Shown here: piece by piece, positions 1,156 through 19,898 of the stretch | How positions within the stretch are numbered: position 1 is the first letter of the stretch | Layout of the letters: each line of letters starts with the position of its first letter | Origin: an uncultured Pseudomonadota bacterium | Lineage (GTDB): Bacteria > Pseudomonadota > Alphaproteobacteria > RF32 > CAG-239 | Direction: 5' to 3' | NCBI GenBank assembly: GCA_902763905.1 | Contig: CACWUA010000009.1 | Location: forward strand, 808-64,807 | Length of the DNA: 64,000 bases | Position numbers and translations under genes: made by a program | The notes under the pieces: model-generated | Database searches by the model: none | Told to the model about the DNA's origin: nothing | What the model saw: the letters and a program-made list of their open reading frames with translations, nothing else

Positions 1156-2901
1156 TTAATCAGCGCTATATCTATCAGCAAAATCATTTTCTGTAAGCGT
1201 TAAACAAGTTGACAAATTGTTTATGGTTTCTTTTGATGTCGGCAGAATTTTTAATGAGGATAACTGATTCTTTATTGCGCTATTTATTGCTATGACCGAT
1301 GCTTTGCTTTTTATCCAGTTTTGCGGTACAAATACTTTACCAGCTTCATAAGAACTCTCATTTGCCGTCTCAAATGAAACATTAAGCACATTTCCCGTAA
1401 ATTCAAGAACAAATTCAAACATTTTTGCATCTGATAGTTGCTTATACACTTTTGCAGGGCTTGGAGTTTTACCCACTTTTTTATTCACTTCGTTTGCTAA
1501 AGCACTAATGGCGTATAATTGATGATACGGAGCATAAGCTTTCATGGCCAACAAAGCTTCATTTAATCCCATTGGATTAGTAGGTTCCCAAAGTTTAATA
1601 ATTGCATCAAACATTTCTTTTAAGGCTTGCATATCCTCAGCCTTATATTCTTTATGGAATAATTGACTGAAATATGTATCAAATATTCGAGTTTCGCCAT
1701 AACTTAAATTAGGTCGCTGACTATGCCATGCAATTAACTCTTTTCCCATAGCCGTCAATTCATTTACATGAAGCATGTTGAATTTTGTTTGATCAACAAT
1801 TTCACCACGTTTTGTAATCAAATATCCGTCGGTATATGTCTGCTCATATGTTTTTTTAAGGCTCAACACAATTTTATCATTACTTCTCATATCCCTTGCC
1901 TTAACAGCACTTTGGCTGTTAGTACTATTGGTAATATTGTCTACCTTAGAACTATCCGCTATTTCATAAAATTTAAATAAGATATATCCGTTTGATTTTT
2001 TTGCTGTCTCGCCACATCCAAAAATAGTACTTAAGCTTTGGCAACCGTTAACAACATTAAAGTCTTTGACTGAAAGCCTTGTTCCATTCTGTTCAATACT
2101 TTTACATATTGCTGTAATACCATTATGATAGAAGAAAAAATCGCCAGAGTCATTTTTAATGGTTCGTGCTATTCCTTTATTAACTTTATTACTACGCCCT
2201 AAAGACTGTCTTACATTTTTTCTAAATAATTTACCATCCTTAATTCCTGGAATGTTAACACACTCTTTTAGTTGAACGGCAGCTAATATGGTTTTGATTC
2301 CGTTCAATTCCATTTGCATACATTTGTCCGTTTCTATTGTAAAGTCATAATTAATATAGCTATTTGTTTTATTAAGTGCTTCATCATATTTTGCCTGTAA
2401 CATTTCATCGTCTACAATTACGAACGAAGCGTTAATATCTTCATTATCAGATATAAATTTTCTGAATATTTCAAAATCAGCGCTTGCCTGTTGGGTTAGT
2501 TTAGATGTTGTGATAAATTCAAAACAAATTTCATAGTCATCTTCAAGTGCTCTACTTATTTCATTTATCTTAACAACTAATTTTGCGTTTGCATTTTCTT
2601 GCAAATGTTCAAGATTTTTTATTTGCATCCAGGAACTAACGACTTCCCTTAATGGCTCTGCGTCTATTTCATCACAGTTATAAAATTTTCCTTGAATTAT
2701 ATAGATTGTTGAATCTTGATTATCAATGTAAACAGCATCTATCTGCTTATCATTAGCACCATCTGTAATACAGTCTTTTGCTTCAATTGTATTTAATCCA
2801 TGGATATTCCTTAAATACCAAGCAATAAAACGTTGACCATCATTAGAATAATTCTGCTGATAATAATCTTGCTTTATGTCCTGTAAAATTCTGTGCCGCA
2901 T
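1156..2901 (-). CDS. AIPR-family abortive-infection protein
   Basis: 581 aa. N-terminal nuclease-like block GANDKQIDAVYIDNQDSTIYIIQGKF. Central FFYHNGITAICKS...VVNGCQSLSTI, typical of the AIPR domain. Confidence 0.75.
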   Translation of the reverse strand: MRHRILQDIKQDYYQQNYSNDGQRFIAWYLRNIHGLNTIEAKDCITDGANDKQIDAVYIDNQDSTIYIIQGKFYNCDEIDAEPLREVVSSWMQIKNLEHLQENANAKLVVKINEISRALEDDYEICFEFITTSKLTQQASADFEIFRKFISDNEDINASFVIVDDEMLQAKYDEALNKTNSYINYDFTIETDKCMQMELNGIKTILAAVQLKECVNIPGIKDGKLFRKNVRQSLGRSNKVNKGIARTIKNDSGDFFFYHNGITAICKSIEQNGTRLSVKDFNVVNGCQSLSTIFGCGETAKKSNGYILFKFYEIADSSKVDNITNSTNSQSAVKARDMRSNDKIVLSLKKTYEQTYTDGYLITKRGEIVDQTKFNMLHVNELTAMGKELIAWHSQRPNLSYGETRIFDTYFSQLFHKEYKAEDMQALKEMFDAIIKLWEPTNPMGLNEALLAMKAYAPYHQLYAISALANEVNKKVGKTPSPAKVYKQLSDAKMFEFVLEFTGNVLNVSFETANESSYEAGKVFVPQNWIKSKASVIAINSAIKNQLSSLKILPTSKETINNLSTCLTLTENDFADRYSAD

Positions 2902-3103
2902 TTGTAATACTCCTTTCTAGCTAATATTTTACAATTAAAATCTAGCATACGTTAAAAATTATTTTTATAACGATTTAATTGCATAAACGATAGTGGGATA
3001 ATACCCTAATGTCAATAATAATTGACAATGTTTTCAGTTTAATAGATGTTTTGCAGCATTAATTTCTCAATAGCCATATTTCCGTATCTAGGCTATAAAA
3101 TGA

Positions 3104-5836: not shown

Positions 5837-6290
5837 CCCGGTAAAAAATCTAGTAAATAAATATACTTAAGGCATAAAAAAGAGTGGTCAGTTTTACCTT
5901 TCCACTCTATATCAGTTATGCTTATTAAACATAACGAGCTCCTTTCAAGCAACCTTTACCGGAGAAGGTATTGATTGCGAACAATATTATTCTTTGCCTG
6001 ATTCAACAAGCATTCCGTGATAGCACATTGGATAGTAATGTTAATCACATCATTTAAATTGCGAGCCTGAGTATAGCTATAGATAGTGTTACCCCTTGAT
6101 ACCCAAGTCAGCATATTTAACGCTTCCAACAATTTAATCATCTCCTTACTGTTTGTAGGTTAATTGAAACGATGTACCCACATCGTCCCTTCCGGTGATA
6201 GAATACGATAAAAATTTCAACATGTCAAATTCGCAAATATTGTAACCAGGGAAAATATTATTTATTTCTATCTTTAAGATATTTTTTTTA

Positions 6291-6395
6291 CAATTTGCCA
6301 AACAAAAAAGTCACAAATTACCGAACGAAAAAGTCACAATTTGCCGAACGAAAAAGTCACAATTTGCCGAACGAAAAAGTCACAAATGACCGAAT
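6291..6395 (+). repeat. Tandem array, 4.5 copies of a 23-bp unit CAATTTGCCGAACGAAAAAGTCA
   Basis: Units start at 6291, 6314, 6337, 6360 and 6383 (partial). Units 3 and 4 are identical. Confidence 0.9.
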
Positions 6396-7136
6396 CAGAA
6401 TAAAAATAACTGGAAAAACAATATGATATCTTCTTGGGTGGTGATCGACATCTAAATGATAATTTATCGGCGGAAGTGAGAGCAGAAATATCAACGTTTG
6501 AAACATCAATTTCGCCTTTCATAAGTTTTGGTAACAATGTGTCCCGAAGTGCCGCTAGCCGTGTATTTTCTAGAGAATTATTCCATATAAGCCTGTCTAA
6601 TACAGAACATGTATTTTCAAATTTTATCATAATTTCATTTGTAGGGATAGTAACCGGCATATTATACAATGAATCTTTATTCACTGAACCAAAAACAGTT
6701 CCTTCTCCGTTAAAAATATTTAATCTATCTTGAGATGCCCAAATGGTGTAAAGGATAAACGATTGACAATTTTGTTTTGACCGAATTGCACATAACCCTC
6801 TTCCAATACAACAATTATCCATGGCTACATTAAAATCTCCTACAGGTGCTCGAACGCTCATGATTACATCACCTGTTTGGGCCATACGTTTGGGTTCTGT
6901 TGTATATAATCTAACTCTAGGAAATCGGGCTCCAAATTCGGCTCTGCCTTGAAAAAAAATGCAACCGTTTTTTTCTTCATTATAACTACTGCCATTTGGA
7001 GATTGACCCATTATAATTTCTGCAATTTCACCAAGTTTTCCAACTTTCCAATCTTCCGGCATAACTCCGCCGAAAGGTTCAAAATCCACAAACCATGACT
7101 TAAATAGAGCCTGTGCCTGTTGTTCTAAATTATTAT
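6334..7136 (-). CDS. hsdS: Promoterless type I RM specificity (HsdS) half cassette: alternative TRD2 plus conserved regions
   Basis: The translation ..INNNLEQQAQALFKSWFVDFEPFGG..TRD..RLAALRDTLLPKLMKGEIDVSNVDISALTSADKLSF parallels the second half of the full hsdS at 12809-14062. It has no start codon at the conserved-region boundary. The 3' tail of the ORF runs into the 23-bp repeats. Confidence 0.8.
6452..6516 (-). repeat. Inverted repeat IR-C (left copy), partner of 13988-14052
   Basis: Its reverse complement matches 13988-14052 at 62 of 65 positions (counted by eye). Confidence 0.9.
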
Positions 7137-7141
7137 TTATC
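7106..7141 (-). repeat. Inverted repeat IR-M (left copy), partner of 13351-13386
   Basis: Its reverse complement GATAAATAATAATTTAGAACAACAGGCACAGGCTCT matches 13351-13386 at 35 of 36 positions. It overlaps the recombinase stop codon. Confidence 0.9.
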
Positions 7142-8126
7142 CAATGAACTTGCGGTGGGCGAGCTTAACATTACTCTGTTTAACCATTGCGTATTGCAAA
7201 GTTGTGTCAATTCTTGAGTGACCGAGCAATTTTTGAAGCTGTTCTATTGGCATTCCTTTATCAATGGCCATTGTTGCAAGTGTTCGGCGGAATTTATGCG
7301 GATGCACCTTTGGAATATTCAAACGCAATCCAAGCTCACGAAGCCTAACCTCAATTCCGCTAATTTCTAAACGATTATATGGCGATTTTAAGGATACAAA
7401 CAGCGCGGCATTACTATCTGTCCGGCTTTCCAAATAATTCTGTAAATGAATTTTTGTTCTGGCATCAAAATATACTATCCGTTCCTTATCACCTTTCCCA
7501 AATACCACACATTCTCGTTCCGTAAAATTTATGTCCTCGCGATTAAGTAACACCATTTCTCCAACGCGCATTCCGGTAGAGGCTAACATATCAATCATAG
7601 CCAAATCACGTAGATTTCCGCATTCATCACGCATTAGCTCCAACATTTCATCTGAATATGTTTCTTTGATATTGGTGCCGGTTTTAACCTTATGTATCCG
7701 ACGCACCGGACTTTTAATAATATAATTTTCATCTTCAAGCCATGCGAAAAAACTAGATAATATGCGCCGGATATTATCAATAGTTACTCGGCTTGAATTA
7801 TTATTTATTTGATAGTCTGTTAAATAAGTACGTAAATCATCGGTAACAATTTGTTTGATATTTTTATTTACGATTTTCAGCATGTTAGTAATTGTAGCAT
7901 TGTAATATTTTATTGATTTTAGAGAGCATCCCTCAATTTTTTTTGCCGATAGAAATAGTTCAATATATGATGCATTTGATATTTCTGTATCTTCAAAATC
8001 AATTTTTTCCTTGATTTCATAACCATCAAACACCCGTTGCAATGTATCTCTCAATTCAATTAATTGACTGTTATCAATTTTGGTTTGCATTTCCAAAATA
8101 ATTTCATTTATTACTGTATCATTCAT
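7137..8126 (-). CDS. Tyrosine site-specific recombinase (XerC/D-integrase family), probable hsdS invertase
   Basis: 329 aa. Catalytic pattern STGMRVGE (R), HPHKFRRT (H-x-x-R), LLGHSRIDTTLQY (H, Y). It sits between the hsdS cassette and hsdM. Confidence 0.9.
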   Translation of the reverse strand: MNDTVINEIILEMQTKIDNSQLIELRDTLQRVFDGYEIKEKIDFEDTEISNASYIELFLSAKKIEGCSLKSIKYYNATITNMLKIVNKNIKQIVTDDLRTYLTDYQINNNSSRVTIDNIRRILSSFFAWLEDENYIIKSPVRRIHKVKTGTNIKETYSDEMLELMRDECGNLRDLAMIDMLASTGMRVGEMVLLNREDINFTERECVVFGKGDKERIVYFDARTKIHLQNYLESRTDSNAALFVSLKSPYNRLEISGIEVRLRELGLRLNIPKVHPHKFRRTLATMAIDKGMPIEQLQKLLGHSRIDTTLQYAMVKQSNVKLAHRKFIG

Positions 8127-8271: not shown

Positions 8272-9780
8272 ATGGCAGGAAAAAATAACGCCAATATCGG
8301 TTTTGAAAAGCAAATTTGGGATGCGGCTTGTGAACTTTGGGGACATATTCCGGCGGCGGATTACCGTAAAGTTATCATCGGTCTTATCTTTTTGCGTTAC
8401 ATCTCATTTGCGTTTGAAAAGCGTTATAATCAACTGGTGGCGGAAGGCGATGGTTTTGAGGACGAGAAAGATGCCTACACAATGGAAGGTATATTTTATG
8501 TGCCGGAAGCCGCACGTTGGAGCAAAATTGCTGAAGCCGCTCATACACCGGAAATCGGTATGGTTATAGATGAAGCTATGCGGGCAATAGAAGCCGAAAA
8601 CAAAACGCTCAAAAACGTTCTGCCTAAAAATTATGCCAACCAAGACCTTGATAAACGTGTTTTGGGAAATGTAGTTGACCTGTTTACCAATAATATTGAT
8701 ATGTCGGAAACAGATGAGGATAAAGACCTGCTAGGGCGCACTTATGAATACTGTATCGCCCAGTTTGCCGCATACGAAGGCACCAAAGGCGGTGAATTTT
8801 ACACGCCGTCAAGCATTGTTAAAACCATTGTGGAAGTATTGAAACCGTTTGATAACTGCCGCGTTTATGACCCTTGCTGTGGTTCCGGCGGAATGTTTGT
8901 TCAGTCAGTTAAATTTTTGCAGGCACATGGCGGTAATCGGGATAAAATCTCGGTCTATGGACAAGAATCTAATGCCGATACTTGGAAAATGGCTAAGATG
9001 AATATGGCCATTCGCGGAATTGATGCTGATTTTGGGCCTTATCAAGCCGATACATTTTTTAATGACCTGCACCCGCACGAAAAGTTTGATTTTATTATGG
9101 CAAATCCTCCGTTTAACTTATCCAACTGGGGACAAGACAAGCTCCTTGATGATGCGCGTTGGAAATATGGTACGCCGCCGGCCGGTAATGCCAACTATGC
9201 GTGGATTCAGCACATGATACACCACCTCGCACCGAATGGAAAAATCGGTTTAGTGTTAGCGAACGGTGCGCTTTCTACTCAAACCAGTGGTGAAGGTGAA
9301 ATCCGCAAAAATATCATTGAAGCCGATTTGGTTGAGGGAATTATCGCTCTGCCGCCGCAACTATTTTATAGCGTAACAATTCCGGTAACATTGTGGTTTA
9401 TCAGCAAAAATAAACAACAAAAAGGACGCACTGTATTTATAGATGCGCGTAAAATGGGTTATATGGTCGACCGTAAGCACAGAGATTTTACTGACGAAGA
9501 TATTAAAAAATTGGCGGATACTTTTACGGCATTTCAAAATGGCAAGTTGGAAAATGTCAAAGGTTTTTGTGCGGTGGCAACAACGGCAGAAATTGCGGCA
9601 CAGGATTATATTTTAACCCCTGGACGTTATGTCGGTATTGAGGAGCAGGAAGATGACGGCGAGCCGTTTGAAGAGAAAATGAAACGCCTGACCGGCGAAC
9701 TTTCCGAGATGTTTAAGCAGTCCGACACTCTCCAAAACGAAATCCGCGAAAAACTAAAAGCCATCGGCTGGGAGATTTAG
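8272..9780 (+). CDS. hsdM: Type I RM DNA methyltransferase subunit HsdM
   Basis: 502 aa. N-terminal HsdM domain (EKQIWDAACELWGHIPAADYRKVIIGLIFLRY). AdoMet motif DPCCGSGGMF. Catalytic NPPF. Confidence 0.95.
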   Translation: MAGKNNANIGFEKQIWDAACELWGHIPAADYRKVIIGLIFLRYISFAFEKRYNQLVAEGDGFEDEKDAYTMEGIFYVPEAARWSKIAEAAHTPEIGMVIDEAMRAIEAENKTLKNVLPKNYANQDLDKRVLGNVVDLFTNNIDMSETDEDKDLLGRTYEYCIAQFAAYEGTKGGEFYTPSSIVKTIVEVLKPFDNCRVYDPCCGSGGMFVQSVKFLQAHGGNRDKISVYGQESNADTWKMAKMNMAIRGIDADFGPYQADTFFNDLHPHEKFDFIMANPPFNLSNWGQDKLLDDARWKYGTPPAGNANYAWIQHMIHHLAPNGKIGLVLANGALSTQTSGEGEIRKNIIEADLVEGIIALPPQLFYSVTIPVTLWFISKNKQQKGRTVFIDARKMGYMVDRKHRDFTDEDIKKLADTFTAFQNGKLENVKGFCAVATTAEIAAQDYILTPGRYVGIEEQEDDGEPFEEKMKRLTGELSEMFKQSDTLQNEIREKLKAIGWEI

Positions 9781-9783
9781 TTT

Positions 9784-10770
9784 ATGGTAGAACAACAGAA
9801 AAACATTGCGATTTATCAATCAGCAGACGGAAAAATGCAGATAGATGTTCATCTGCAAGAACAGACTATTTGGCTTTCTCTTGATCAAATTTCATCTTTA
9901 TTTCAAAAGGATAAATCAACAATATCTCGCCATATTAAGAATGTTTTTTTATCAGAAGAATTAGATAAAGAATCAGTTGTTGCAAATTTTGCAACAACTG
10001 CCAAAGATGGCAAAACCTATCAAGTTGATTACTATAATTTAGATATGATAATTTCGGTTGGTTATCGTGTAAATTCAAAAATTGCCACTCAATTTCGCAA
10101 ATGGGCAACTTTCGTCTTAAAACAATACCTTGTGGATGGATACGCTGTCAATGAAAAACGGCTACAGGAGCAAAAATCCAAAGTTGCTCAATTACAAAAT
10201 GCAATCAAACTCTTAAATCGGAGCATAGAGCATCAGGCAGATAATCTAGATGATGCTAAAAAATTAAGTGCCTTAATGGCAGATTTTGCTTCAGGTCTTG
10301 GTTTACTAGATGATTATGATAACAAAACTCTTGATACTAAAGGGAAAACAATCAAACCCGCGGTGGTTATTAAAAAAGAAGAATTTTTGAACGTTATTGA
10401 TAAAATGAAGCCGGAGTTTGGCTCAGACGTTTTTGCAAACCCCAAAGATGAGAGTTTTGATAGCTCAATTAATCAGATTTATCAGACATTCGGAGGACAA
10501 GAATGTTACCCTTCGTTAGAAGAAAAAGCGGCAATGTTGCTCTATTTTCTGGTAAAAAATCACAGCTTTACAGATGGCAACAAACGGATTGGCGCGGCTT
10601 GTTTCCTGTATTTTCTGGATAAAAACGGAATTTTATATCAAAATAATGTACAGATTATTGATAATGCGGCTTTGTTTGCACTCACTGTTTTAATCGCTGA
10701 AAGTAAGCCGGAAGAAAAAGAAATGATGAAACAGGTTATTATCAGCGTATTGAATAAGGAGGAGATTTAA
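9784..10770 (+). CDS. RhuM-like N-terminal domain fused to a Fic/Doc-family domain
   Basis: N-terminus TYQVDYYNLDMIISVGYRVNSKIATQFRKWAT (RhuM-type). C-terminal Doc-type Fic motif HSFTDGNKRIGAA. Confidence 0.8.
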   Translation: MVEQQKNIAIYQSADGKMQIDVHLQEQTIWLSLDQISSLFQKDKSTISRHIKNVFLSEELDKESVVANFATTAKDGKTYQVDYYNLDMIISVGYRVNSKIATQFRKWATFVLKQYLVDGYAVNEKRLQEQKSKVAQLQNAIKLLNRSIEHQADNLDDAKKLSALMADFASGLGLLDDYDNKTLDTKGKTIKPAVVIKKEEFLNVIDKMKPEFGSDVFANPKDESFDSSINQIYQTFGGQECYPSLEEKAAMLLYFLVKNHSFTDGNKRIGAACFLYFLDKNGILYQNNVQIIDNAALFALTVLIAESKPEEKEMMKQVIISVLNKEEI

Positions 10771-11598
10771 ATGCTATATGTTAGGAATTTCTTAAGATGG
10801 TGTTTCCTTACTGTAGTAGTTGGACTATCCTTGTCTTTACTCGGAGCTCACATTTATTACAAACATTTCCAAGCGCCAGAGTTATCATTTATACGTAGAA
10901 CATATGCTATATTCTCTGATGTAAATACTCATAATGCCCATATAGCTCTGTTTATAAATGAAAAACAAGTTAAAAATCTGTATATGACTACTATAAAGAT
11001 AGAAAATACTGGTGGTGTTGTATTAGAGCGTGGAAACTTTTCCGCAGAAATGAATCCATTACGAATAATCGGAGAAAATATAGAATCTGTTTTTATTGAT
11101 GAAAATAATTCTAATTTTAATTCTACAACACAAATTGTGAAAAAAGACGGAGAATTTTTGATTAATTTTAACTGGTTGAATCCTGGGGATTATATAACAA
11201 TAAATGTCTTCCACGAAAACAAAAATTCAAAAATAAATCTAATAGGTAGTTTTGAAAAAATAGGAACTTTAAAAGAAATCTTTATAAAAGATTTAATAGT
11301 GAAGCGTAATTTGCCCCGTGCAATTATTATCACAATCATTGTAATGGTAGGAACGTTATTAATCGTTGGATCAGTTTTTGTTATCTCTAACAAACTATCT
11401 TATGGTGCATTTTTGCTTTCGTTTAAGCAGCAAATAGCATGTGCATATGCAACAGTTCTTTATGAAAATGACAAGAAAAAAAGAACAAAAATCCTCAAAA
11501 AAATTATAAATACAAAAGAAGATAAGAAGCTTCAACAAATAGTAAATGAATGCTATAAGGATACATATAACAAAGAGAAGCCAAATAGGAGAAAATAG
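10771..11598 (+). CDS. Hypothetical two-TM membrane protein (gene B of the RM-embedded cassette)
   Basis: AAGGAGG RBS. The start abuts the Doc-like stop. Hydrophobic helices FLTVVVGLSLSLLGAHIYY and AIIITIIVMVGTLLIVGSVFVI flank a beta-rich segment. K-rich tail. Confidence 0.65.
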   Translation: MLYVRNFLRWCFLTVVVGLSLSLLGAHIYYKHFQAPELSFIRRTYAIFSDVNTHNAHIALFINEKQVKNLYMTTIKIENTGGVVLERGNFSAEMNPLRIIGENIESVFIDENNSNFNSTTQIVKKDGEFLINFNWLNPGDYITINVFHENKNSKINLIGSFEKIGTLKEIFIKDLIVKRNLPRAIIITIIVMVGTLLIVGSVFVISNKLSYGAFLLSFKQQIACAYATVLYENDKKKRTKILKKIINTKEDKKLQQIVNECYKDTYNKEKPNRRK

Positions 11599-11600
11599 AA

Positions 11601-11951
11601 ATGGAAAATAGTATTACATTGAATTCATTTACTGCCGGAGCGGTTGCCGGTATGGTTATTGCGGAGCTTCGTGGCTTCAATAACTATTTAATGAACAATT
11701 TTGATATGCGGCAGGAACGGTATCAAACAGCCATAAAAATATCTGAAAGCATAATCTCTATGCTATCACAGCAACCTTTTGAAAATCGCTCAAAAGAGGA
11801 AATGAAATTTTTGATAGACGTTTATAAAGAGGCTAGAATTCATCGAGATCCTTACGATAAAGACAGATTAGAAAACATCGCATCTTTAATGAAAGCAACA
11901 CTTGATTGGCTGGATGAGCAAAAACAATCGCAGGAGCAACAGCATGACTAG
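11601..11951 (+). CDS. Hypothetical small, mostly helical protein (gene C)
   Basis: 116 aa. AGGAG RBS. The start is 2 nt after the stop of gene B. Confidence 0.55.
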   Translation: MENSITLNSFTAGAVAGMVIAELRGFNNYLMNNFDMRQERYQTAIKISESIISMLSQQPFENRSKEEMKFLIDVYKEARIHRDPYDKDRLENIASLMKATLDWLDEQKQSQEQQHD

Positions 11952-12008
11952 CTGGCAGGAAATTAAATCAGAAGAATTTATTTTTTATAACTGTATGTAA
12001 TAAAGAAA

Positions 12009-12806
12009 GTGACTAAAATGACTGAAAATCAATATGATATTTTTTTATATTTTAAGGAATACATAGATTTATTCTTAAAGACAGTTATTCCGTATCTAGC
12101 TGAACAGACTGTTTCTCTATTAAAAAGTTGGTCATTTATTATTTTATTGGTGTTTTTATGCCTAAAGAAACCCATTATTGATCTTATTAATAAAATTTAT
12201 GAAATTCATTTTTCCAAAGGAAAAATATTTATTCAAAAGCAAGTTGAACAAGAAAAATCAGGGCTGGATACAAATCTTTTAACTACAAATAACGGTATCC
12301 CCCAGACCATCAACACAGGAAATACAGAATTATCACCCAAACTAAACAAAAATAAAAAAGGAATACATTTACCTGCCCTTCCAGATGACAATGTTTTTAA
12401 GGGCGTTTTCAATGATCAAGAAAAAATTATTAAAACAGAACTAACTAAGACTCCTTTCATTAAAGAAGAAGTGCTGATTCGTGAATTAGCTTCTTATCAA
12501 ATTGCATTAGATTATGAGCGAATTTTTAAGGATATGTTTAAGAGTCAAATTGATGCTCTAGAATACATAAATTCAAACGAACAAGGCGTCACAAAAAATG
12601 ATTTATTAAAATTTTATGATAAAGCCAAACAACAATACCCTGTTGCTTATCAAGATTTTTCTTTTGAAAATTGGTTTGCTTTCTTTGATATTCATAATTT
12701 CATCGAGCAAAAAGATAATAAACTTTATCCAACAGAGAAGTCTCAAGCATTCACATATTATATCATCGTTCAAAGACGGTATAATATTTTGTATAAAGGT
12801 CTATAA
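12009..12806 (+). CDS. Hypothetical membrane-anchored protein (gene D)
   Basis: 265 aa (GTG start; an alternative ATG lies at 12018). One hydrophobic helix SWSFIILLVFLCL. Helical C-terminal domain. The stop is 2 nt before the hsdS ATG. Confidence 0.6.
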   Translation: MTKMTENQYDIFLYFKEYIDLFLKTVIPYLAEQTVSLLKSWSFIILLVFLCLKKPIIDLINKIYEIHFSKGKIFIQKQVEQEKSGLDTNLLTTNNGIPQTINTGNTELSPKLNKNKKGIHLPALPDDNVFKGVFNDQEKIIKTELTKTPFIKEEVLIRELASYQIALDYERIFKDMFKSQIDALEYINSNEQGVTKNDLLKFYDKAKQQYPVAYQDFSFENWFAFFDIHNFIEQKDNKLYPTEKSQAFTYYIIVQRRYNILYKGL

Positions 12807-12808
12807 AT

Positions 12809-14062
12809 ATGACTAAATGGCGGGAAGTTAAATTAGGAGATATTTGTCTCATTATCGATGGGGATAGAGGTAAAAATTACCCAAGAGAAAATGAATTTTC
12901 AAGAGATGGATATTGTTTATTTTTAAATACAAAAAATGTTCCTAATATCAAATTTGATTTTTCAGAATGTGTTTTCATATCAAAAGATAAAGATGCACTT
13001 TTACGTAAAGGAAAACTGAAATTTGAGGATATTGTTGTAACAACTCGTGGTACATTAGCTAATTTTGCTTATTACACAAGAGAGTGTATATACAGTAATA
13101 TTAGGATAAATTCAGGTATGGTTATCCTACGAAATGAAAATCAAAATTTATATACTCCTTATTTGTATCATTTTTTGATGTCGAAAAATTTTAAACAGCA
13201 AGTAAGCTCTTTTGCAACAGGCTCTGCACAACCACAACTACCAATTAAGGATATGAAGAACATTTTGATATCATTACCACCTTTTGAGGTTCAGAAGAAG
13301 ATTGCGGGGGTGTTGGGTGCGCTGGATGATAAAATTGAGCTGAATAATAAGATAAATAATAATTTAGAACAACAGGCTCAGGCTCTTTATGTAAATAATA
13401 TAGAACTGTATAAGGAAAGAAATATCAAAGTTGAAGATATTGTAATAACTGCTAACACCGGTGCGGACGCTATACAAAAGGCTCCTATAGTTGATTACGA
13501 TACAGGAGTAAAGTGTGTAAGAGTTGGCGACATGTCAAATAAACGGAGCTATTCTGATTGGGGATATGCTAAAGTAACTGATGACGTATTTTCTCAGTAT
13601 CAATTAAAAAAAGATGATATAATTGTTACTAGAACTGCATCATTAGGACTAAACACAATCATTTCTAAAAATTTAGATGCAGTTTATAATAATGGTCTTA
13701 TCCGGCTAACCATAAATAAAGACGTAATAGTTCCTTTGCTTGTATATAGACAATTTCAGACGGATGATTTTAAGAATTACATATCAAAAATAGAAGGAGA
13801 AACATCCGTGCGACCTAATATGAAAATAAACTATTTATTGCAATATTCTTTTGCCGTAATGAATAAAGAAAAACAAAAGGAACTTATTAAAGTGCTTGAA
13901 CCTCTGTGGAATAAACAAGAACAATTAATAGAAGAAAACGCCAGACTGGCGGCGATACGGGATACGTTGTTGCCGAAACTCATGAGTGGCGAAATTGATG
14001 TTTCAAACGTGGATATTTCGGCTCTCACTTCCACCGATAAATTATCATTTAGTGGGGAGTAA
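12809..14062 (+). CDS. hsdS: Type I RM specificity subunit HsdS (full length: TRD1, central conserved region, TRD2, C-terminal conserved region)
   Basis: 417 aa. Central FEVQKKIAGVLGALDDKIELNNKINNNLEQQAQALY and C-terminal RLAAIRDTLLPKLMSGEIDVSN conserved helices. Confidence 0.9.
   Translation: MTKWREVKLGDICLIIDGDRGKNYPRENEFSRDGYCLFLNTKNVPNIKFDFSECVFISKDKDALLRKGKLKFEDIVVTTRGTLANFAYYTRECIYSNIRINSGMVILRNENQNLYTPYLYHFLMSKNFKQQVSSFATGSAQPQLPIKDMKNILISLPPFEVQKKIAGVLGALDDKIELNNKINNNLEQQAQALYVNNIELYKERNIKVEDIVITANTGADAIQKAPIVDYDTGVKCVRVGDMSNKRSYSDWGYAKVTDDVFSQYQLKKDDIIVTRTASLGLNTIISKNLDAVYNNGLIRLTINKDVIVPLLVYRQFQTDDFKNYISKIEGETSVRPNMKINYLLQYSFAVMNKEKQKELIKVLEPLWNKQEQLIEENARLAAIRDTLLPKLMSGEIDVSNVDISALTSTDKLSFSGE
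13351..13386 (+). repeat. Inverted repeat IR-M (right copy) inside the hsdS central conserved region
   Basis: See 7106-7141. Confidence 0.9.
13988..14052 (+). repeat. Inverted repeat IR-C (right copy) inside the hsdS C-terminal conserved region
   Basis: See 6452-6516. Confidence 0.9.
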
Positions 14063-14065
14063 AAC

Positions 14066-14539
14066 ATGGATTGGGCAAGTTGGATTAATGTAGCTTTATC
14101 GGGAGCAATGTTATGGTTAACCATTGCCATACTCAAGCTTAATAAAACTATGACTAAAATAGCAGAAGATGATAAACTAGAAAAAACTGGTCATGATTTA
14201 TCAATAACATTACCAACATTGTATCTTGGCAAAAATGAAAATACAGGAGTTTTAAATAATTTTTGCATTATAAATCATAAAAATAAAATGGAAGCCATTT
14301 ATCGTATATATGCTAAAGAACAAGGAAATGATAAAGAACTTGGTTTTTGGATTGCTGATAAAGAACCGATTATGATTTCCCCTTATAGTTGTTCTTATGT
14401 AACTAAGAATGTTACTCCGTCCCTAAAAATGTTTGATATAGATAAAATAGAGTTATATGCTATAACTAATGATTGTACTGTCAAACTTAATAAAAACATT
14501 GATTGCTTTAATAAACCTATGGAAGCGAAAAAAGAGTAA
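14066..14539 (+). CDS. Hypothetical single-TM protein (gene E)
   Basis: 157 aa. GGGGAG RBS. The start is 3 nt after the hsdS stop. N-terminal helix INVALSGAMLWLTIAIL followed by a beta-rich domain. Confidence 0.6.
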   Translation: MDWASWINVALSGAMLWLTIAILKLNKTMTKIAEDDKLEKTGHDLSITLPTLYLGKNENTGVLNNFCIINHKNKMEAIYRIYAKEQGNDKELGFWIADKEPIMISPYSCSYVTKNVTPSLKMFDIDKIELYAITNDCTVKLNKNIDCFNKPMEAKKE

Positions 14540-14630
14540 TATTTATGCGTAGCAAAATTGATGTTGACAAGGTAAAGATATAAGAATTAAAAATATAAGT
14601 AACATTTAATATAAGCAAAGAGAGGAAAAG

Positions 14631-15374
14631 ATGTTTTTGAATGATACTATATTACCTATGTTGGCTGTCATAGTTACAGGATATATATCTATGATTTATA
14701 CGTTACTGATATTTTTAAGAAAAGGAAGAGAACGAAAAAAAATAATAGATAAGTATTTAGACTCTGTTAAACATCTTAATAGAGATGATGCTTTAGCCTT
14801 TTTAGAAAAAATAGATAATAGATACTATAGTAAAACATCATCACAAAAAAAGCTAGAAGATATTACAGCAAAAAGTATATATGAAAATTACAGATTAGCT
14901 TCAGAAAAAGAAGCTATTCAGTGTAATTTTTTTAGGACCTTATTAATTTCTACAATTGTCATTTTTACAATCTTAATTATGACATTGCAGTCTGTATTTT
15001 TCATAAATGATATAACTGTTTTGGCTTTGGCAAATAGAACTCTTATAGTGCTTCCATTTTTAGTTTTAATCTTATTTGCGGCAAGAGAGGCTTCTAGACA
15101 TAGAAAATCTTTTATTATTAATAGGCAAAAATTTTTAGACTTAAATACAATTGACGAATATATTAAGGGATTTTCTGAAAAAGATAAAATAGCAGTAAAA
15201 AAAGATTTGTGCAGACATTTTTTTAATCATAAAGAATTTGATTATAAATGTAGAGAGGAATTACTATCTAGAAATCTTGTAAATGTTATAGAGAAGATAA
15301 ATGCTAATAGCAATGATGCCATGGAAAAAATATTAAAAACGATTAATCAAACATCTTCGAACAAAGGAGCATAA
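14631..15374 (+). CDS. Hypothetical multi-TM protein (gene F)
   Basis: 247 aa. AGAGAGG RBS. Helices ILPMLAVIVTGYISMIYTLLIFL, LLISTIVIFTILIMTLQSVFFI and LIVLPFLVLILFAA. The stop is 3 nt before the hsdR ATG. Confidence 0.6.
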   Translation: MFLNDTILPMLAVIVTGYISMIYTLLIFLRKGRERKKIIDKYLDSVKHLNRDDALAFLEKIDNRYYSKTSSQKKLEDITAKSIYENYRLASEKEAIQCNFFRTLLISTIVIFTILIMTLQSVFFINDITVLALANRTLIVLPFLVLILFAAREASRHRKSFIINRQKFLDLNTIDEYIKGFSEKDKIAVKKDLCRHFFNHKEFDYKCREELLSRNLVNVIEKINANSNDAMEKILKTINQTSSNKGA

Positions 15375-15377
15375 CTC

Positions 15378-18300
15378 ATGACATACACAAATCCGGTGAA
15401 TGAAGAAGCGTATGAAAACTCGATTATAGAGCTGTTTCAAGAACTCGGCTATACGCATGTTTATGGGCCGGATGTGGAAGATAGAGATTTTACTTCGCCG
15501 CTTTATGAGCCGGTGCTGATAAATGCTCTCCACCAAATCAATCCGAAATTGCCGGAGGAAGCGATAAATGAGGCTCTGTTTAAGCTCAAAAACTTTGAAA
15601 ATGCCGAACTGACGCAGAAAAACGCGTTGTTTATGGATTATTTGCAAAACGGCATCACTGTCCATTATACCGAAAAAGGCGAACCTCGCGATACACTGGT
15701 TTATTTGATTGATTATGAAAAGCCGGACAATAATTCATTTATTGTTGCCAACCAATGGACATTTGTTGAAAATAGTGAAAAACGTCCGGACGTATTGTTA
15801 TTTATTAACGGTTTGCCACTGGTATTGATGGAACTGAAATCGCCTTCACGCGAAGAAACTGATGCCTCCGAAGCATATCGCCAAATTCAGAATTACAAGC
15901 ATGAAATACCATCAATGTTTGTTTATAATGCTATTTGCGTTATGAGTGATTTGGCGGTATCTAAAGCCGGAACGATAACATCTGACGAAACTCGCTTTAT
16001 GGAGTGGAAGACGGTTGACGGTTCTTATGAAAATACCAAATATGCCCAGTTCGATACATTTTTTAACGGTATTTTTGAAAAGTCGCGCCTGCTTGATATT
16101 TTGAAAAACTTTATTTGCTTTTCTAACGAAAACAAAGGAGCAGCAAAGATTTTAGCTGGCTACCACCAATATTTCGCGGTTAAAAAAGCGATTGAATCAA
16201 CCAAACACGCGACACAAACTGACGGTAAAGGCGGTGTATTCTGGCATACACAAGGGAGCGGAAAGTCGCTTTCTATGGTGTTTTACGCGCATTTGTTACA
16301 AAGTGCATTAAACAGCCCGACAATAGTTGTCATTACTGACCGTAACGATTTGGATGACCAACTGTATACGCAGTTTTCTAAATGTAAAGACTTTCTGCGC
16401 CAAGAACCGGTGCAGGCTACCAGTCGCGCTCATTTGAAACAGCTTTTGGATGGTATCAAAGCCAACGGTATTTTCTTTACCACAATGCAGAAATTTGAGG
16501 AATCACCGGAACCGTTGTCAGAGCGTCGTAATATTATCGTAATGGCGGATGAGGCACACCGCGGGCAGTATGGCTTAAGCGAAAAGATAGATAAAGACGG
16601 AAATATCAAAGTCGGTACAGCGCGAATTATTCGTAATTCTCTGCCAAACGCAACATATATTGGTTTTACCGGAACGCCGCTTTCTCTTGATGACCGCAAC
16701 ACGCGAGAGGTATTTGGCGATTATATCGATATTTATGATATGACACAAGCGGTGGAAGATGGTGCAACACGTCCGGTTTATTATGAAAGCCGCGTGATAA
16801 AACTTCACTTAAAGCCGGAGATTTTGCAACTGATTGATGCTGAATATGATTTAATGGCGCAAAATGCCGATCCGGAAGTTATTGAAAAAAGCAAAAAACA
16901 GCTTGGGCAGATGGAAACTATTTTGAGCGATGACGACACAATCAATTCGCTTGTCTGCGATATTTTGGATCACTACGAGAACTATCGCGAGAATTTATTG
17001 ACAGGTAAAGCCATGATTGTGGCTTATTCTCGACCAATTGCTCTAAAAATTTATCATCGGATTTTGGAGCTTCGTCCGGCATGGAAGAATAAAGTTGCGG
17101 TGGTTATGACTTCGGATAATAAAGATCCGGAAGATTGGCGTGCCATTATCGGTAATAAATCGCATAAAGAGGAATTGGCTCGTAAATTTAAGGACAATTC
17201 GGATCCTTTGAAAATTGCAATTGTCGTTGATATGTGGTTGACCGGCTTTGATGTGCCGTCACTTTCTACAATGTATGTTTATAAGCCGATGGAAGGTCAT
17301 AATCTGATGCAGGCGATTGCTCGTGTTAATCGTGTGTTTGAAGATAAAGAAGGCGGCTTAGTGGTCGATTATATTGGCATTGCAAGTGCTTTGAAAAAGG
17401 CTATGAATGACTATACCATCCGCGATAGAAAGAACTACGGCAACATGGACATTGCCACCACCGCATTTAACAAATTTAAGGAAAAATTGCAGGTCTGCCG
17501 CGATTTGTTGCATGGTTTTGATTATAGCGAATTTGCGACCGGAACGAATTTAGTCAGAGCTAAGTTAATCAGCGGTGCGGCAAACTTTATTATCGATAGA
17601 GAGAAAAATAAAGAAAAGGATGCCTTTATTAAGCAAGCTCTCATGTTGCATCAAGCACTGTCGCTTTGCTCATCCATTGTTGAAGAAGGATTGCGTATTG
17701 AGGCGGCATTTATTGAAGCTGTTAGGATTATGATTTTGCGCTTTACCGAAAGCGGTGGTCACAAGAAAATATCATTACCGGAAATGAATAAGCGTATCAA
17801 TGAATTGCTGGAAAAAAGCATAAAGAGCGATGGTGTTATCAATCTGTTTTCGGATATAAAAGAAGAATTCTCTCTGTTTGATCCGAAATTTTTGGAAGAA
17901 ATATCCAAGATGAAAGAGAAAAATTTGGCGGTGGAATTGTTGAAAAAGTTAATAGCAGAGCAAATTTCAATCTATCGCCACACAAATGTTGTTCGCTCCG
18001 AAAAATTCAGCGAAATGATACAAGAAGCAATGAATCGTTATCTTAACGGTATGCTGACAAACGAACAAGTTATTGAAGAATTGCTTAATTTGGCAAAACA
18101 AATCGCGTCAGCACAAAAAGAAGGTGAAGATTTAGGACTTAATGCAGAGGAAGCCGCATTTTATGATGCATTAACCAAACCAGAAGCTGTCAAAGATTTT
18201 TATGAAAATGACGAATTAATTGCTATAACAAAAGAACTTACAGAAACTTTACGCAAAAACAAAACAATTGACTTTCAAAAACGCGAACCAGCACGAGCTA

Positions 18301-18425
18301 AAATGCGCATGATTGTTAGAAAATTGCTTAAAAAATATAAATATCCTCCGGAAGGAGTGGAAGATGCTGTCCAAACAGTAATGACGCAGTGCGAATTGTG
18401 GGCAGATAATGTAATGGCTGTATAA
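15378..18425 (+). CDS. hsdR: Type I RM restriction endonuclease/helicase subunit HsdR
   Basis: 1015 aa. Walker A HTQGSGKS. DEAH box MADEAHRGQYG. Helicase C-terminal motifs. Confidence 0.95.
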   Translation: MTYTNPVNEEAYENSIIELFQELGYTHVYGPDVEDRDFTSPLYEPVLINALHQINPKLPEEAINEALFKLKNFENAELTQKNALFMDYLQNGITVHYTEKGEPRDTLVYLIDYEKPDNNSFIVANQWTFVENSEKRPDVLLFINGLPLVLMELKSPSREETDASEAYRQIQNYKHEIPSMFVYNAICVMSDLAVSKAGTITSDETRFMEWKTVDGSYENTKYAQFDTFFNGIFEKSRLLDILKNFICFSNENKGAAKILAGYHQYFAVKKAIESTKHATQTDGKGGVFWHTQGSGKSLSMVFYAHLLQSALNSPTIVVITDRNDLDDQLYTQFSKCKDFLRQEPVQATSRAHLKQLLDGIKANGIFFTTMQKFEESPEPLSERRNIIVMADEAHRGQYGLSEKIDKDGNIKVGTARIIRNSLPNATYIGFTGTPLSLDDRNTREVFGDYIDIYDMTQAVEDGATRPVYYESRVIKLHLKPEILQLIDAEYDLMAQNADPEVIEKSKKQLGQMETILSDDDTINSLVCDILDHYENYRENLLTGKAMIVAYSRPIALKIYHRILELRPAWKNKVAVVMTSDNKDPEDWRAIIGNKSHKEELARKFKDNSDPLKIAIVVDMWLTGFDVPSLSTMYVYKPMEGHNLMQAIARVNRVFEDKEGGLVVDYIGIASALKKAMNDYTIRDRKNYGNMDIATTAFNKFKEKLQVCRDLLHGFDYSEFATGTNLVRAKLISGAANFIIDREKNKEKDAFIKQALMLHQALSLCSSIVEEGLRIEAAFIEAVRIMILRFTESGGHKKISLPEMNKRINELLEKSIKSDGVINLFSDIKEEFSLFDPKFLEEISKMKEKNLAVELLKKLIAEQISIYRHTNVVRSEKFSEMIQEAMNRYLNGMLTNEQVIEELLNLAKQIASAQKEGEDLGLNAEEAAFYDALTKPEAVKDFYENDELIAITKELTETLRKNKTIDFQKREPARAKMRMIVRKLLKKYKYPPEGVEDAVQTVMTQCELWADNVMAV

Positions 18426-18883
18426 TGATCAAAGTTTTGTTTGTATGTTTGGGAAATATTTGTCGGTCGCCGATGGCGGATTTTGTGTTTAAACAAATGG
18501 TCGCCGCAAAGGGGCTGTCGGAGCAGTTTTATATTGATTCTGCCGCCACCGAGCGCTTTAACGAAATGTGCCACGCCGGCATTCATCACGGCACCCGCGA
18601 CAAGCTGAAAGCCATGCAAATTCCGTTCGAGGAGCATTATTCGCGGCAAATTCGCCCGCGCGACTACGTGTATTTCGACTACATTATCGCGATGGACGAT
18701 AGTAATATTGATGACATTTTGGAGATTGTCGGACCGGATACGGAGCGCAAAATTTATCGCCTGCTTGATTTTACGGACCATCCGCGCAATATCCGCGATC
18801 CATGGTATACCGGCAATTTTGACGAGAGCTATGATGATATCAGCGAGGGTTGTCAGGCGTTTTTGGAATATTTAAATCTATAA
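18425..18883 (+). CDS. Low-molecular-weight protein-tyrosine phosphatase
   Basis: P-loop VLFVCLGNICRSPMA (CX5R-S) and the DPWY acid loop. The ATG overlaps the hsdR TAA by 1 nt. Confidence 0.85.
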   Translation: MIKVLFVCLGNICRSPMADFVFKQMVAAKGLSEQFYIDSAATERFNEMCHAGIHHGTRDKLKAMQIPFEEHYSRQIRPRDYVYFDYIIAMDDSNIDDILEIVGPDTERKIYRLLDFTDHPRNIRDPWYTGNFDESYDDISEGCQAFLEYLNL

Positions 18884-18974: not shown

Positions 18975-19898
18975 ATGTCAGATTTAAAGCTGTTTAATAT
19001 CAAAAGTGGCAAAGCTGTTGAGCTCAATAGCTTAATTGTTAGCAAAGAGCGTAATATTCAAAGGATTGTAGAAGAAAATAGCGATATACTATTGAATGTA
19101 CGCTTTTTGAAAAGTGAGCATGCTTTCAAAGCAGAAGATGGACATAATGCTCGTATTGATACTTTAGGTCTTGATGAAAATAATTGTCCTGTGATTATTG
19201 AATATAAGAGAGATGGCAAAGATACGGTTATCAATCAAGGTTTATTTTACATGGATTGGTTGGTAAAGCACCCCAAGGATTTTGCTTGGTTAGTATTAGA
19301 AAAGTTTGGGAAGAAAGTTGCTGATGATATCGACTGGTCTCAACCACGTTTAATTTGTATTGCACAAGATTTTAGTCGTTATGATGAATTTGCAATCAAA
19401 CAGATGCAAAAAAATATTGATTTAATGCGCTATCGTATATATGAGAATGACCTCTTACTATTTGAATTAGTCAATAGTTCTAGCGACGAAAATAATAAGT
19501 CTACTACTAACAGTATGTTAAAAAAAGAACATAGCACCAATAAAAAAGTTAAAACGGTAATAGATAAATTAGATGCGGCATCTTCAGATATTAAGTCCCT
19601 ATATAATGAATTGGATGATTATCTCCTGTCTTTAGGGGATGATGTTCAAAAGAAGGTTCTAATGCATTATATTGCCTATAGGCGGTTGAAAAATTTTGCC
19701 TCTGTGCAATTTAATAAAAACGAAATACAAATATATGTCAATGTTGATGCGGAAACAATTAATTTAGAAAAAGGTTTTACGCGTGACGTTCGTAATCTTG
19801 GGCATCTTGGAACAGGAAAATTGGAAATAACAATTAAGAATTTAGCGGAATTAGAAAAAGCAAAACCTTTGATAGAGAAAAGTTTAACTCGATCATGA
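18975..19898 (+). CDS. PD-(D/E)xK (NucS/DUF91-like) N-terminal domain protein with a DUF5655-like C-terminal half
   Basis: RIDTLGLDENNCPVIIEYKR gives a D...E-x-K pattern. The C-terminal HYIAYRRLKNFASVQFNKNEIQIYVNV pattern was recalled from memory. Confidence 0.5.
   Translation: MSDLKLFNIKSGKAVELNSLIVSKERNIQRIVEENSDILLNVRFLKSEHAFKAEDGHNARIDTLGLDENNCPVIIEYKRDGKDTVINQGLFYMDWLVKHPKDFAWLVLEKFGKKVADDIDWSQPRLICIAQDFSRYDEFAIKQMQKNIDLMRYRIYENDLLLFELVNSSSDENNKSTTNSMLKKEHSTNKKVKTVIDKLDAASSDIKSLYNELDDYLLSLGDDVQKKVLMHYIAYRRLKNFASVQFNKNEIQIYVNVDAETINLEKGFTRDVRNLGHLGTGKLEITIKNLAELEKAKPLIEKSLTRS

Follow-up and report, generated by a model that had tools for sequence, protein, structure and literature searches.

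Genes B, C and D within a complete type I operon

The stretch of DNA analysed here, hereafter the window, comprises 64,000 nucleotides from an uncultured alphaproteobacterium (contig CACWUA010000009.1, positions 808 to 64,807 of the forward strand). It contains a type I restriction-modification (RM) operon in which three small genes, designated B, C and D, are embedded between hsdM and hsdS (Table 1). Their insertion ahead of hsdS had been noted in the first-pass annotation of this region. The operon is complete; hsdM, hsdS and hsdR carry full domain sets, those of hsdR being HSDR_N, ResIII, SWI2_SNF2, T1R_D3-like and T1RH-like_C in the precomputed list for the identical gene of locus L001. 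The region 8272–18883 forms a single densely packed gene array on the + strand, with the order hsdM–RhuM/Fic–B–C–D–hsdS–E–F–hsdR. Two positions within it accept additional genes, namely slot 1 between hsdM and hsdS and slot 2 between hsdS and hsdR. Comparison with related loci shows that B, C and D are independently swappable cargo of slot 1, and do not constitute one three-gene system.

Table 1. Coordinates of the operon, its cargo and the neighbouring features, with profile matches in brackets (TM, transmembrane).
Feature	Positions	Strand	Description
AIPR gene	1156–2901	-	abortive-infection-like; ~3.4 kb upstream of the RM locus
23-nt tandem units	6290–6404		~five copies of ACAATTTGCCGAACGAAAAAGTC at the hsdS' 3' end
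hsdS'	6334–7141	-	silent half-copy of hsdS (PF01420)
Inverted repeat, first pair	6452–6571 / 13933–14052		84% identity
Inverted repeat, second pair	7106–7141 / 13351–13386		97% identity
Tyrosine recombinase	7137–8126	-	(PF00589)
hsdM	8272–9780	+	type I methyltransferase subunit; left border of slot 1 (PF02384, 2e-109; PF12161)
RhuM + Fic/Doc gene	9784–10770	+	embedded cargo (PF13310, 1.8e-24; PF02661, 2.7e-12; PADLOC PDC-S23, 9.8e-129)
Gene B	10771–11598	+	275 aa
Gene C	11601–11951	+	116 aa
Gene D	12018–12806	+	262 aa from ATG; 265 aa from alternative GTG at 12009
hsdS	12809–14062	+	specificity subunit, two target-recognition domains; right border of slot 1, left border of slot 2 (PF01420 in two stretches)
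Gene E	14066–14539	+	slot 2; 157 aa, one TM helix by hydropathy
Gene F	14631–15374	+	slot 2; 247 aa, three hydrophobic helices by hydropathy
hsdR	15378–18425	+	restriction subunit; right border of slot 2
LMWPc gene	18425–18883	+	low-molecular-weight phosphatase; abuts/overlaps the hsdR stop
DUF5655 gene	18975–19898	+	just downstream of the operon

The reading frames and the spacers of 0, 2, 57 and 2 nt given in the first-pass annotation proved correct. Gene B begins immediately after the stop codon of the RhuM/Fic gene, 2 nt separate B from C and D from hsdS, and the spacer between C and D measures 57 nt if D starts at the GTG and 66 nt if it starts at the ATG. The ATG at 12018 is the likelier start because all D homologues align from this position. 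The good ribosome-binding sites ascribed to all three genes were found for B (GGAGG) and C (AGGAG), both well spaced, whereas D is preceded only by a weak GAAAG. Similarly, the GC content of B (0.29), C (0.37) and D (0.28) does fall below that of hsdM (0.44) and hsdR (0.40), as had been remarked, but low GC is not peculiar to these genes because hsdS (0.33), E (0.29), F (0.26) and the RhuM/Fic gene (0.34) are likewise AT-rich. We found no convincing terminator within 10771–12806, and this arrangement makes it plausible that B, C and D are co-transcribed with hsdM and hsdS.

Each of the three genes has conserved full-length homologues that differ mainly by synonymous substitutions. The ratio of nonsynonymous to synonymous substitution rates (dN/dS) was 0.16–0.42 for B and 0.11–0.20 for D, compared with 0.03–0.04 for hsdM and hsdR; for C, the proportion of nonsynonymous differences was 0.18 against a saturated synonymous proportion of 0.74. 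On these comparisons, B, C and D are confirmed as real, intact genes, and their substitution pattern is that of purifying selection on all three. None of them could be assigned to a family, in agreement with the first-pass annotation; searches of Pfam, PADLOC, NCBIfam and PHROGs returned nothing above threshold, and 0 families matched at E <= 1 among 5027 PADLOC v2 models, including 145 PDCs. The Walker A motif [AG]xxxxGK[ST] is absent from B, C and D, and no nuclease motif was recognised in any of them.

Gene-by-gene exchange in two slots

Related operons were gathered from rumen and human-gut metagenomes by exact-sequence look-ups and locus scans. Their hsdM and hsdR products are 84–95% identical to those of the window (95% for both in L007), and within this conserved frame we identified eight distinct slot-1 arrangements (Table 2). 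The two slots together are filled by about 15 different unnamed families, and the alternative occupants that were compared with Pfam and PADLOC gave no match. Homologues of the window's genes recur at the same position of the operon, D being located between hsdM and hsdS in six distinct arrangements, that of L019 included, and B with C in L013. The exchange can be followed at nucleotide resolution between the window and L007, which differ by a clean 1.25-kb insertion (10774–12023, corresponding to B, C and the gap after C) that extends exactly from the RhuM/Fic stop to the D start.

Table 2. Gene content of the slots in the window and in related loci (unnamed genes are given by product length).
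Locus	Slot 1 (hsdM–hsdS)	Slot 2 (hsdS–hsdR)
Window	RhuM/Fic, B, C, D	E, F
L007/9/11/12	RhuM/Fic, D	279 aa, 111 aa
L008/10	RhuM/Fic, D	271 aa
L014/15	RhuM/Fic, D, 260 aa	289 aa, 112 aa
L028	D, 159 aa	off contig
L019 (Alphaproteobacteria metagenome-assembled genome; D 41% identical)	D, 179 aa, 151 aa	F-like 237 aa, 118 aa
L013	B, C, PIN_12	218 aa, 284 aa
L016/17 (without RM genes)	AAA_25, RhuM/Fic, D, 164 aa	none

Gene D occurs without B or C in most of the operons (L007–L012, L014/15, L028 and L019). In L028 and L019 it is also without the RhuM/Fic gene and directly follows hsdM, and in L016/17 and L018 there are no RM genes at all. At L018, a solitary D gene is preceded by an AT-rich region and has a Shine-Dalgarno sequence of its own; its neighbours are a phosphatase gene on one side and a DUF2924/HipBA cluster on the other. 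Conversely, L013 contains B and C without D. Gene B without C or D was found outside type I operons in six loci (L003–L006, L026 and L027), where a search of all six-frame open reading frames with the C profile did not detect C. In L003–L006, B belongs to a small block common to two different islands, one with AIPR, Z1, DUF4420 and a C5 methylase (L004) and the other with an integrase, an N6/N4 methylase and T5orf172 (L003). In L027, B is divergent from a HaeIII-type endonuclease/methylase pair, and in L026 it is located between a DUF805 gene and a gene with a NERD nuclease domain. The homologues are not found predominantly outside defence or RM contexts; where B and D leave the type I operon, their surroundings are mostly RM, toxin-antitoxin, HEPN, CRISPR or island neighbourhoods.

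The distribution of C differs from that of the other two genes. Among the fetched loci, a profile search placed C only in the window contigs and in L013, where a homologue with 68% identity is located after B. The 90% cluster of C has 22 members on dozens of contigs, whereas that of B has 1 member on three contigs, and the number of B relatives found by searching does not match the count for C. Variants of C occur on contigs bearing the same RhuM/Fic and recombinase genes, an association drawn partly from adjacent accession numbers. For example, a 37,643-bp contig of an Alphaproteobacteria metagenome-assembled genome at NCBI carries the RhuM/Fic gene (MBR3662832.1) and, three accession numbers on, C (MBR3662835.1); no B homologue is on record. 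Gene C therefore usually appears to lie without an adjoining B, and with this provisional case every pairwise combination of the three genes is broken somewhere.

Two candidate modules were considered in this context. A fixed RhuM/Fic and D module was rejected, given that D lies directly after hsdM in L028 and L019 and alone in L018. A fixed B and C module, as seen in the window and L013, is weakened by the six loci with B and without C and by the cluster sizes of 22 members for C and 1 for B. Gene C is far commoner than B or D in public metagenomes, and some of its variants are carried on contigs of 333–346 kb. In one C variant with an N-terminal extension, the sequence 5' of the C ribosome-binding site differs from the tail of B. 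No match to C was found in plasmids, phage genomes or viral contigs.

Other slot occupants deserve mention. In L013, D is replaced by a gene (2111–3064) for a PIN_12-domain protein of 317 aa that overlaps the start of hsdS and is a candidate embedded effector. The product of gene F in slot 2 of the window features an N-terminal TM helix followed by a two-helix hydrophobic hairpin (~104–148), and showed weak PADLOC matches to RTasSLATT (1.3e-3) and Csx1 (2.8e-4), with no Pfam SLATT match. The same slot of L019 holds an F homologue (E 6.5e-60); in other operons, unrelated genes (279/111, 271 or 218/284 aa) are found there.

The central and C-terminal repeats of hsdS match the silent copy hsdS', which together with the adjacent recombinase gene is predicted to form an hsdS inversion switch. 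The invertible segment would span 6.2–7.4 kb and is predicted to include hsdM, the RhuM/Fic gene, B, C, D and the first half of hsdS; a single inversion would leave the hsdM–hsdS unit pointing away from E, F and hsdR. Switches that combine a recombinase with a silent hsdS copy in inverted orientation are known from phase-variable type I RM systems (for example PMC7672463 and PMC7394358), with which the window shares the silent hsdS' half-gene, the tyrosine recombinase and two inverted-repeat pairs within hsdS. The window differs in that its silent copy is located upstream of hsdM, and because of this position the predicted invertible segment holds hsdM and all slot-1 cargo, not only the halves of hsdS. 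The same recombinase and repeat are present in L028. The 23-nt tandem units at the hsdS' 3' end have a counterpart in L015, which is without the hsdS'–recombinase insert and has 1–2 copies directly upstream of the hsdM promoter region; by analogy with the direct repeats of RptR, these units could be operator repeats for a regulator. A short direct repeat shared by 6413–6435 and the start of D was also considered and, compared by eye, looks like chance.

Predicted products of B, C and D

The product of B had been read from the sequence as two TM helices flanking a beta domain, followed by a basic tail, and both hydropathy and an AlphaFold2 model bear this out. Hydrophobic helices at ~10–28 and ~185–203 are positioned either side of a beta-sandwich (~38–158), and the tail is basic (+11, pI 9.8) with three short helices. 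The AlphaFold2 model, with a mean pLDDT of 67 and values of 75–87 over the sandwich, is composed of a helix (2–33), a nine-to-ten-strand beta-sandwich (38–158), a second helix (172–206) and the three short helices. Compartments were assigned from hydropathy and charge, which put the sandwich on the periplasmic side of the membrane and leave the N-terminus and tail in the cytoplasm. Based on this, B is predicted to be an inner-membrane protein with an N-in first helix (TM1), a periplasmic sandwich, a second helix (TM2) and a cytoplasmic tail. Foldseek returned only generic Ig-like and carbohydrate-binding (CBM-like) sandwiches for B (E >= 3e-3). Homologues of B were found in 7 clusters. Among holin and superinfection-exclusion (Sie) families the sole match was the holin PHROG 1350 at E 0.12, and a search of phage genomes, plasmids and IMG/VR viral contigs gave no match.

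A segment of B shows an unusual degree of conservation relative to L013. The 600 bp at 10819–11418, which span the end of TM1, the periplasmic domain and TM2, are 95–100% identical to ~957–1556 of that locus, whereas the DNA of hsdM and hsdR is 75–78% identical and the B tail and all of C are 65–77% identical; for the flanks of this stretch, identity is 70–78%. This patch indicates a recent recombination or gene-conversion event, apparently confined to the exposed part of B. The idea that the entire B–C cassette was transferred recently had to be narrowed, as near-identity is limited to the 600 bp within B, and C shows the same degree of divergence as the RM genes.

Gene C encodes a small, acidic protein (pI 5.0). 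Its N-terminal segment, rich in Gly and Ala, is hydrophobic yet stays below the TM threshold; the description of the protein as helical comes from the first-pass annotation.

The product of D is composed of N-terminal helices, one hydrophobic anchor (~38–52), a disordered linker (67–115) and a C-terminal winged helix (~165–255). The single TM helix corresponds to the first-pass description, whereas the C-terminal domain, described there simply as helical, is specifically a winged helix. In the AlphaFold2 model (mean pLDDT 64; 83–91 over residues 170–250 of this domain), the elements H193–206, H216–225, E229–232, E235–238 and H240–254 have the order of a winged-helix fold, and the top Foldseek matches, namely CggR, MepR, IclR, MarR and Sso10a, are all winged-helix proteins (probability <= 0.99, E >= 0.067). 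A Foldseek comparison of D with viral structures gave nothing significant. We do not assume that D binds DNA because its winged-helix domain is acidic (pI 5.8) and the third, or "recognition", helix is hydrophobic.

A profile search of 1.84 billion representatives with the D family detected 1291 clusters at E <= 1e-3, 217 of them at E <= 1e-10. The members are mostly 200–245 aa long, share the layout of D and are all unnamed. Of 60 D relatives, 13 matched PF14947 HTH_45 (best E 1.1e-5) and 10 matched NF053610 Sso10a_fam (best E 2e-5), whereas D itself matched neither. Beyond this sub-threshold Sso10a similarity, no NCBIfam family was found for the 60 relatives, and against PHROGs they gave three weak matches, all to one PHROG of unknown function. 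The D homologue of L019 scored 22.7 bits, below the cut-off of 25.5. A further homologue search with the 60-sequence D profile added one protein only, and narrower D alignments added one locus each. No match to D was found in phage genomes, plasmids or IMG/VR contigs, with the exception of a weak D-family match on Legionella plasmids. On one of these plasmids the D relative has a RelE/HTH pair on one side and a HEPN gene on the other, with type I-F cas genes ~5 kb away; on a second it lies among hypothetical genes with a recombinase nearby. Another relative, in a Bacteroides element, is flanked by a lysis-type amidase and an integrase, and a distant one directly follows rpoBC and is in turn followed by a PhdYeFM–PIN pair. 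These contexts are suggestive of accessory or defence neighbourhoods.

Relation to known embedded systems and possible roles

The guilt-by-embedding approach looks for new defence systems among the genes inside type I RM, BREX, DISARM and Hma loci, and has yielded the PDC and HEC sets; more than 50% of the embedded genes are still without an assignment (Payne et al, 2024; bioRxiv 10.1101/2024.01.29.577857). Like the candidates of that survey, B, C and D lie on the same strand within a complete type I operon and carry no mobilome or housekeeping annotation, and their neighbour, the RhuM/Fic gene, is itself PDC-S23. Unlike the PDC/HEC candidates, they match no PADLOC model, and the survey probably did not name these families since they are rare or absent in RefSeq isolates. 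Two experimentally studied cases, TgvAB in the type I RM operon of Vibrio cholerae VPI-2 (PMC11411939) and DarTG2 in that of enteropathogenic Escherichia coli (PMC12255303), provide independent defence; they share the expression of the operon yet do not depend on HsdR for their action. The window resembles both in that unrelated genes are inserted between hsd genes. However, the enzymology of DarTG, a toxin-antitoxin, is known and TgvAB is a GmrSD-like nuclease pair, whereas no catalytic domain is recognisable in B, C or D, of which two are membrane proteins. The loci of the rlo genes (R-linked ORFs) of Campylobacter jejuni (Miller et al, 2005, cited in PMC11411939) likewise combine a conserved hsd frame with strain-variable, unrelated open reading frames between hsdR, hsdS and hsdM; as described there, the gene families, as well as the host, differ from those of the window. 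By analogy, B, C and D fit the known tendency of type I RM operons to harbour unrelated defence genes, and they are new, rare candidate families of this embedded kind.

The reading that we favour, with a probability of roughly 0.55, is that B, C and D are separable slot-1 cargo, each likely a stand-alone anti-phage or anti-mobile-element gene that operates at the membrane independently of RM. The RM genes provide the conserved frame, within which cargo is exchanged one gene at a time at exact gene boundaries; under this model, each cargo gene would borrow the operon promoter and act at the inner membrane independently of the RM complex. The periplasmic Ig-like sandwich of B could block or sense phage entry in a manner similar to superinfection exclusion, or B could signal through its basic cytoplasmic tail. 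D could serve as a membrane-tethered winged-helix sensor or effector, more likely binding a protein or ligand than DNA because its domain is acidic. C would be a small cytoplasmic protein that may partner with the product of the preceding gene. The dN/dS values of B and D, which are 4–10x those of hsdM and hsdR, suggest together with the 600-bp patch in B arms-race-like dynamics.

Several points weigh against this reading. The analysis shows that B, C and D are real genes, with their predicted topology and folds, modular presence and absence, and genomic contexts; their defence role and its membrane-level mechanism are inferred. None of the three is homologous to a validated defence protein, PADLOC recognised nothing in them, and no enzymatic or pore-forming motif was recognised in any; the 60 D relatives gave nothing meaningful against PADLOC either. 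The models of B and D are of moderate confidence (mean pLDDT 64–67), are derived from 7-sequence alignments and have generic fold matches. Many loci come from closely related genomes, and recurrence in the operon is therefore partly shared descent. The defence enrichment of the D family is anecdotal because only a handful of contexts among the 1291 clusters were read, one of them right behind rpoBC.

The main rival, which we consider less probable, is that some or all of the three genes are non-defence cargo, whether neutral or selfish hitch-hikers or genes for the envelope or another function, collected in an expressed slot that tolerates insertions. The missing similarity to known defence proteins and the D relative adjoining rpoBC would suit such genes. 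So would the orphan nature of these very rare families, of which B has 7 clusters, and the low GC and patchy distribution, which are generic signs of horizontally acquired accessory DNA. In contrast, all three genes are under purifying selection, their contexts outside the operon are again RM, toxin-antitoxin, HEPN, CRISPR or NERD, and most of the non-mobilome genes that published screens have tested from within type I RM, BREX and Hma loci do defend (bioRxiv 10.1101/2024.01.29.577857).

It is unlikely that D, perhaps with C, is a regulator of the RM genes similar to C-proteins or RptR, or a membrane tether of the methyltransferase or of DNA. The winged-helix fold of D and its location just after hsdM or the RhuM/Fic gene in six RM arrangements would be in line with such a role, as would its travelling with hsdM in the predicted invertible segment, and small RM-proximal regulators such as RptR are known (PMC12255303). 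However, the domain is acidic and its "recognition" helix hydrophobic, D has a membrane anchor that sets it apart from known C-proteins and RptR, both D and members of its wider family are also found where there is no RM system, and L013 has the same kind of operon and no D. The first-pass annotation had more broadly suggested a novel accessory role in the RM complex for the three genes. This idea is weakened by the existence of near-identical RM operons that manage without B, C and D.

The first-pass annotation had also raised the possibility that B, C and D together act as a single system of membrane effectors, guarding the type I RM complex and triggering PrrC-like abortive infection upon anti-restriction inhibition, for which their tight packing on one strand inside the hsdM–hsdS unit, the membrane location of B and D, and the frequency of D at this position (six arrangements, one with D only 41% identical) might speak, but we consider this highly improbable and largely refuted by the presence/absence pattern, given that the genes do not co-occur, C seems mostly to lack B, B and D are also found with no type I RM nearby, and orthologous RM operons are without B, C and D. 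The analogy with PrrC of the EcoprrI type I RM locus extends to embedding in the operon. PrrC combines ABC-type NTPase and nuclease domains and is almost exclusively RM-embedded (bioRxiv 10.1101/2024.01.29.577857); B, C and D are not PrrC-like because they have neither motif, no PADLOC model for PrrC matched them, and B (L003–L006, L026, L027) and D (L016–L018) also occur outside type I RM.

A wider version of the favoured reading is offered tentatively, as a possibility well short of even odds. In this version, the D family, defined by an anchor and an acidic winged helix in ~200–260 aa and comprising at least 1291 clusters at 50% identity, would be a widespread, undescribed family of single-gene, membrane-associated anti-phage or anti-plasmid proteins, for which there is no Pfam, NCBIfam or PADLOC model; B would be a new periplasm-facing exclusion or sensor protein; and the operon lineage would be a two-slot "cassette carrier" of ~15 families with an invertible slot 1.

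The relevant unit at this locus is each gene singly, not B, C and D together. If any of them does defend, it would add membrane-level mechanisms without a recognisable enzyme domain, a class that is under-represented among known defence systems. The value of the locus lies in its role as a source of candidates, together with the large unnamed D family, and not in a new type of system; its ~15 unnamed families, most of them membrane proteins, make a compact list for functional screening. Metagenome-only cargo of this kind is missed by RefSeq-based embedding surveys.

The flanks of the operon contain further genes of interest. Because the AIPR gene lies upstream and the DUF5655 gene just downstream, the operon is situated in a defence-island-like region. 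The LMWPc gene is also present 3' of hsdR in L007, L008, L009, L010, L011 and L014, and may be either a conserved part of the operon or a fixed chromosomal neighbour. In L018, the LMWPc gene is divergent from the stand-alone D.

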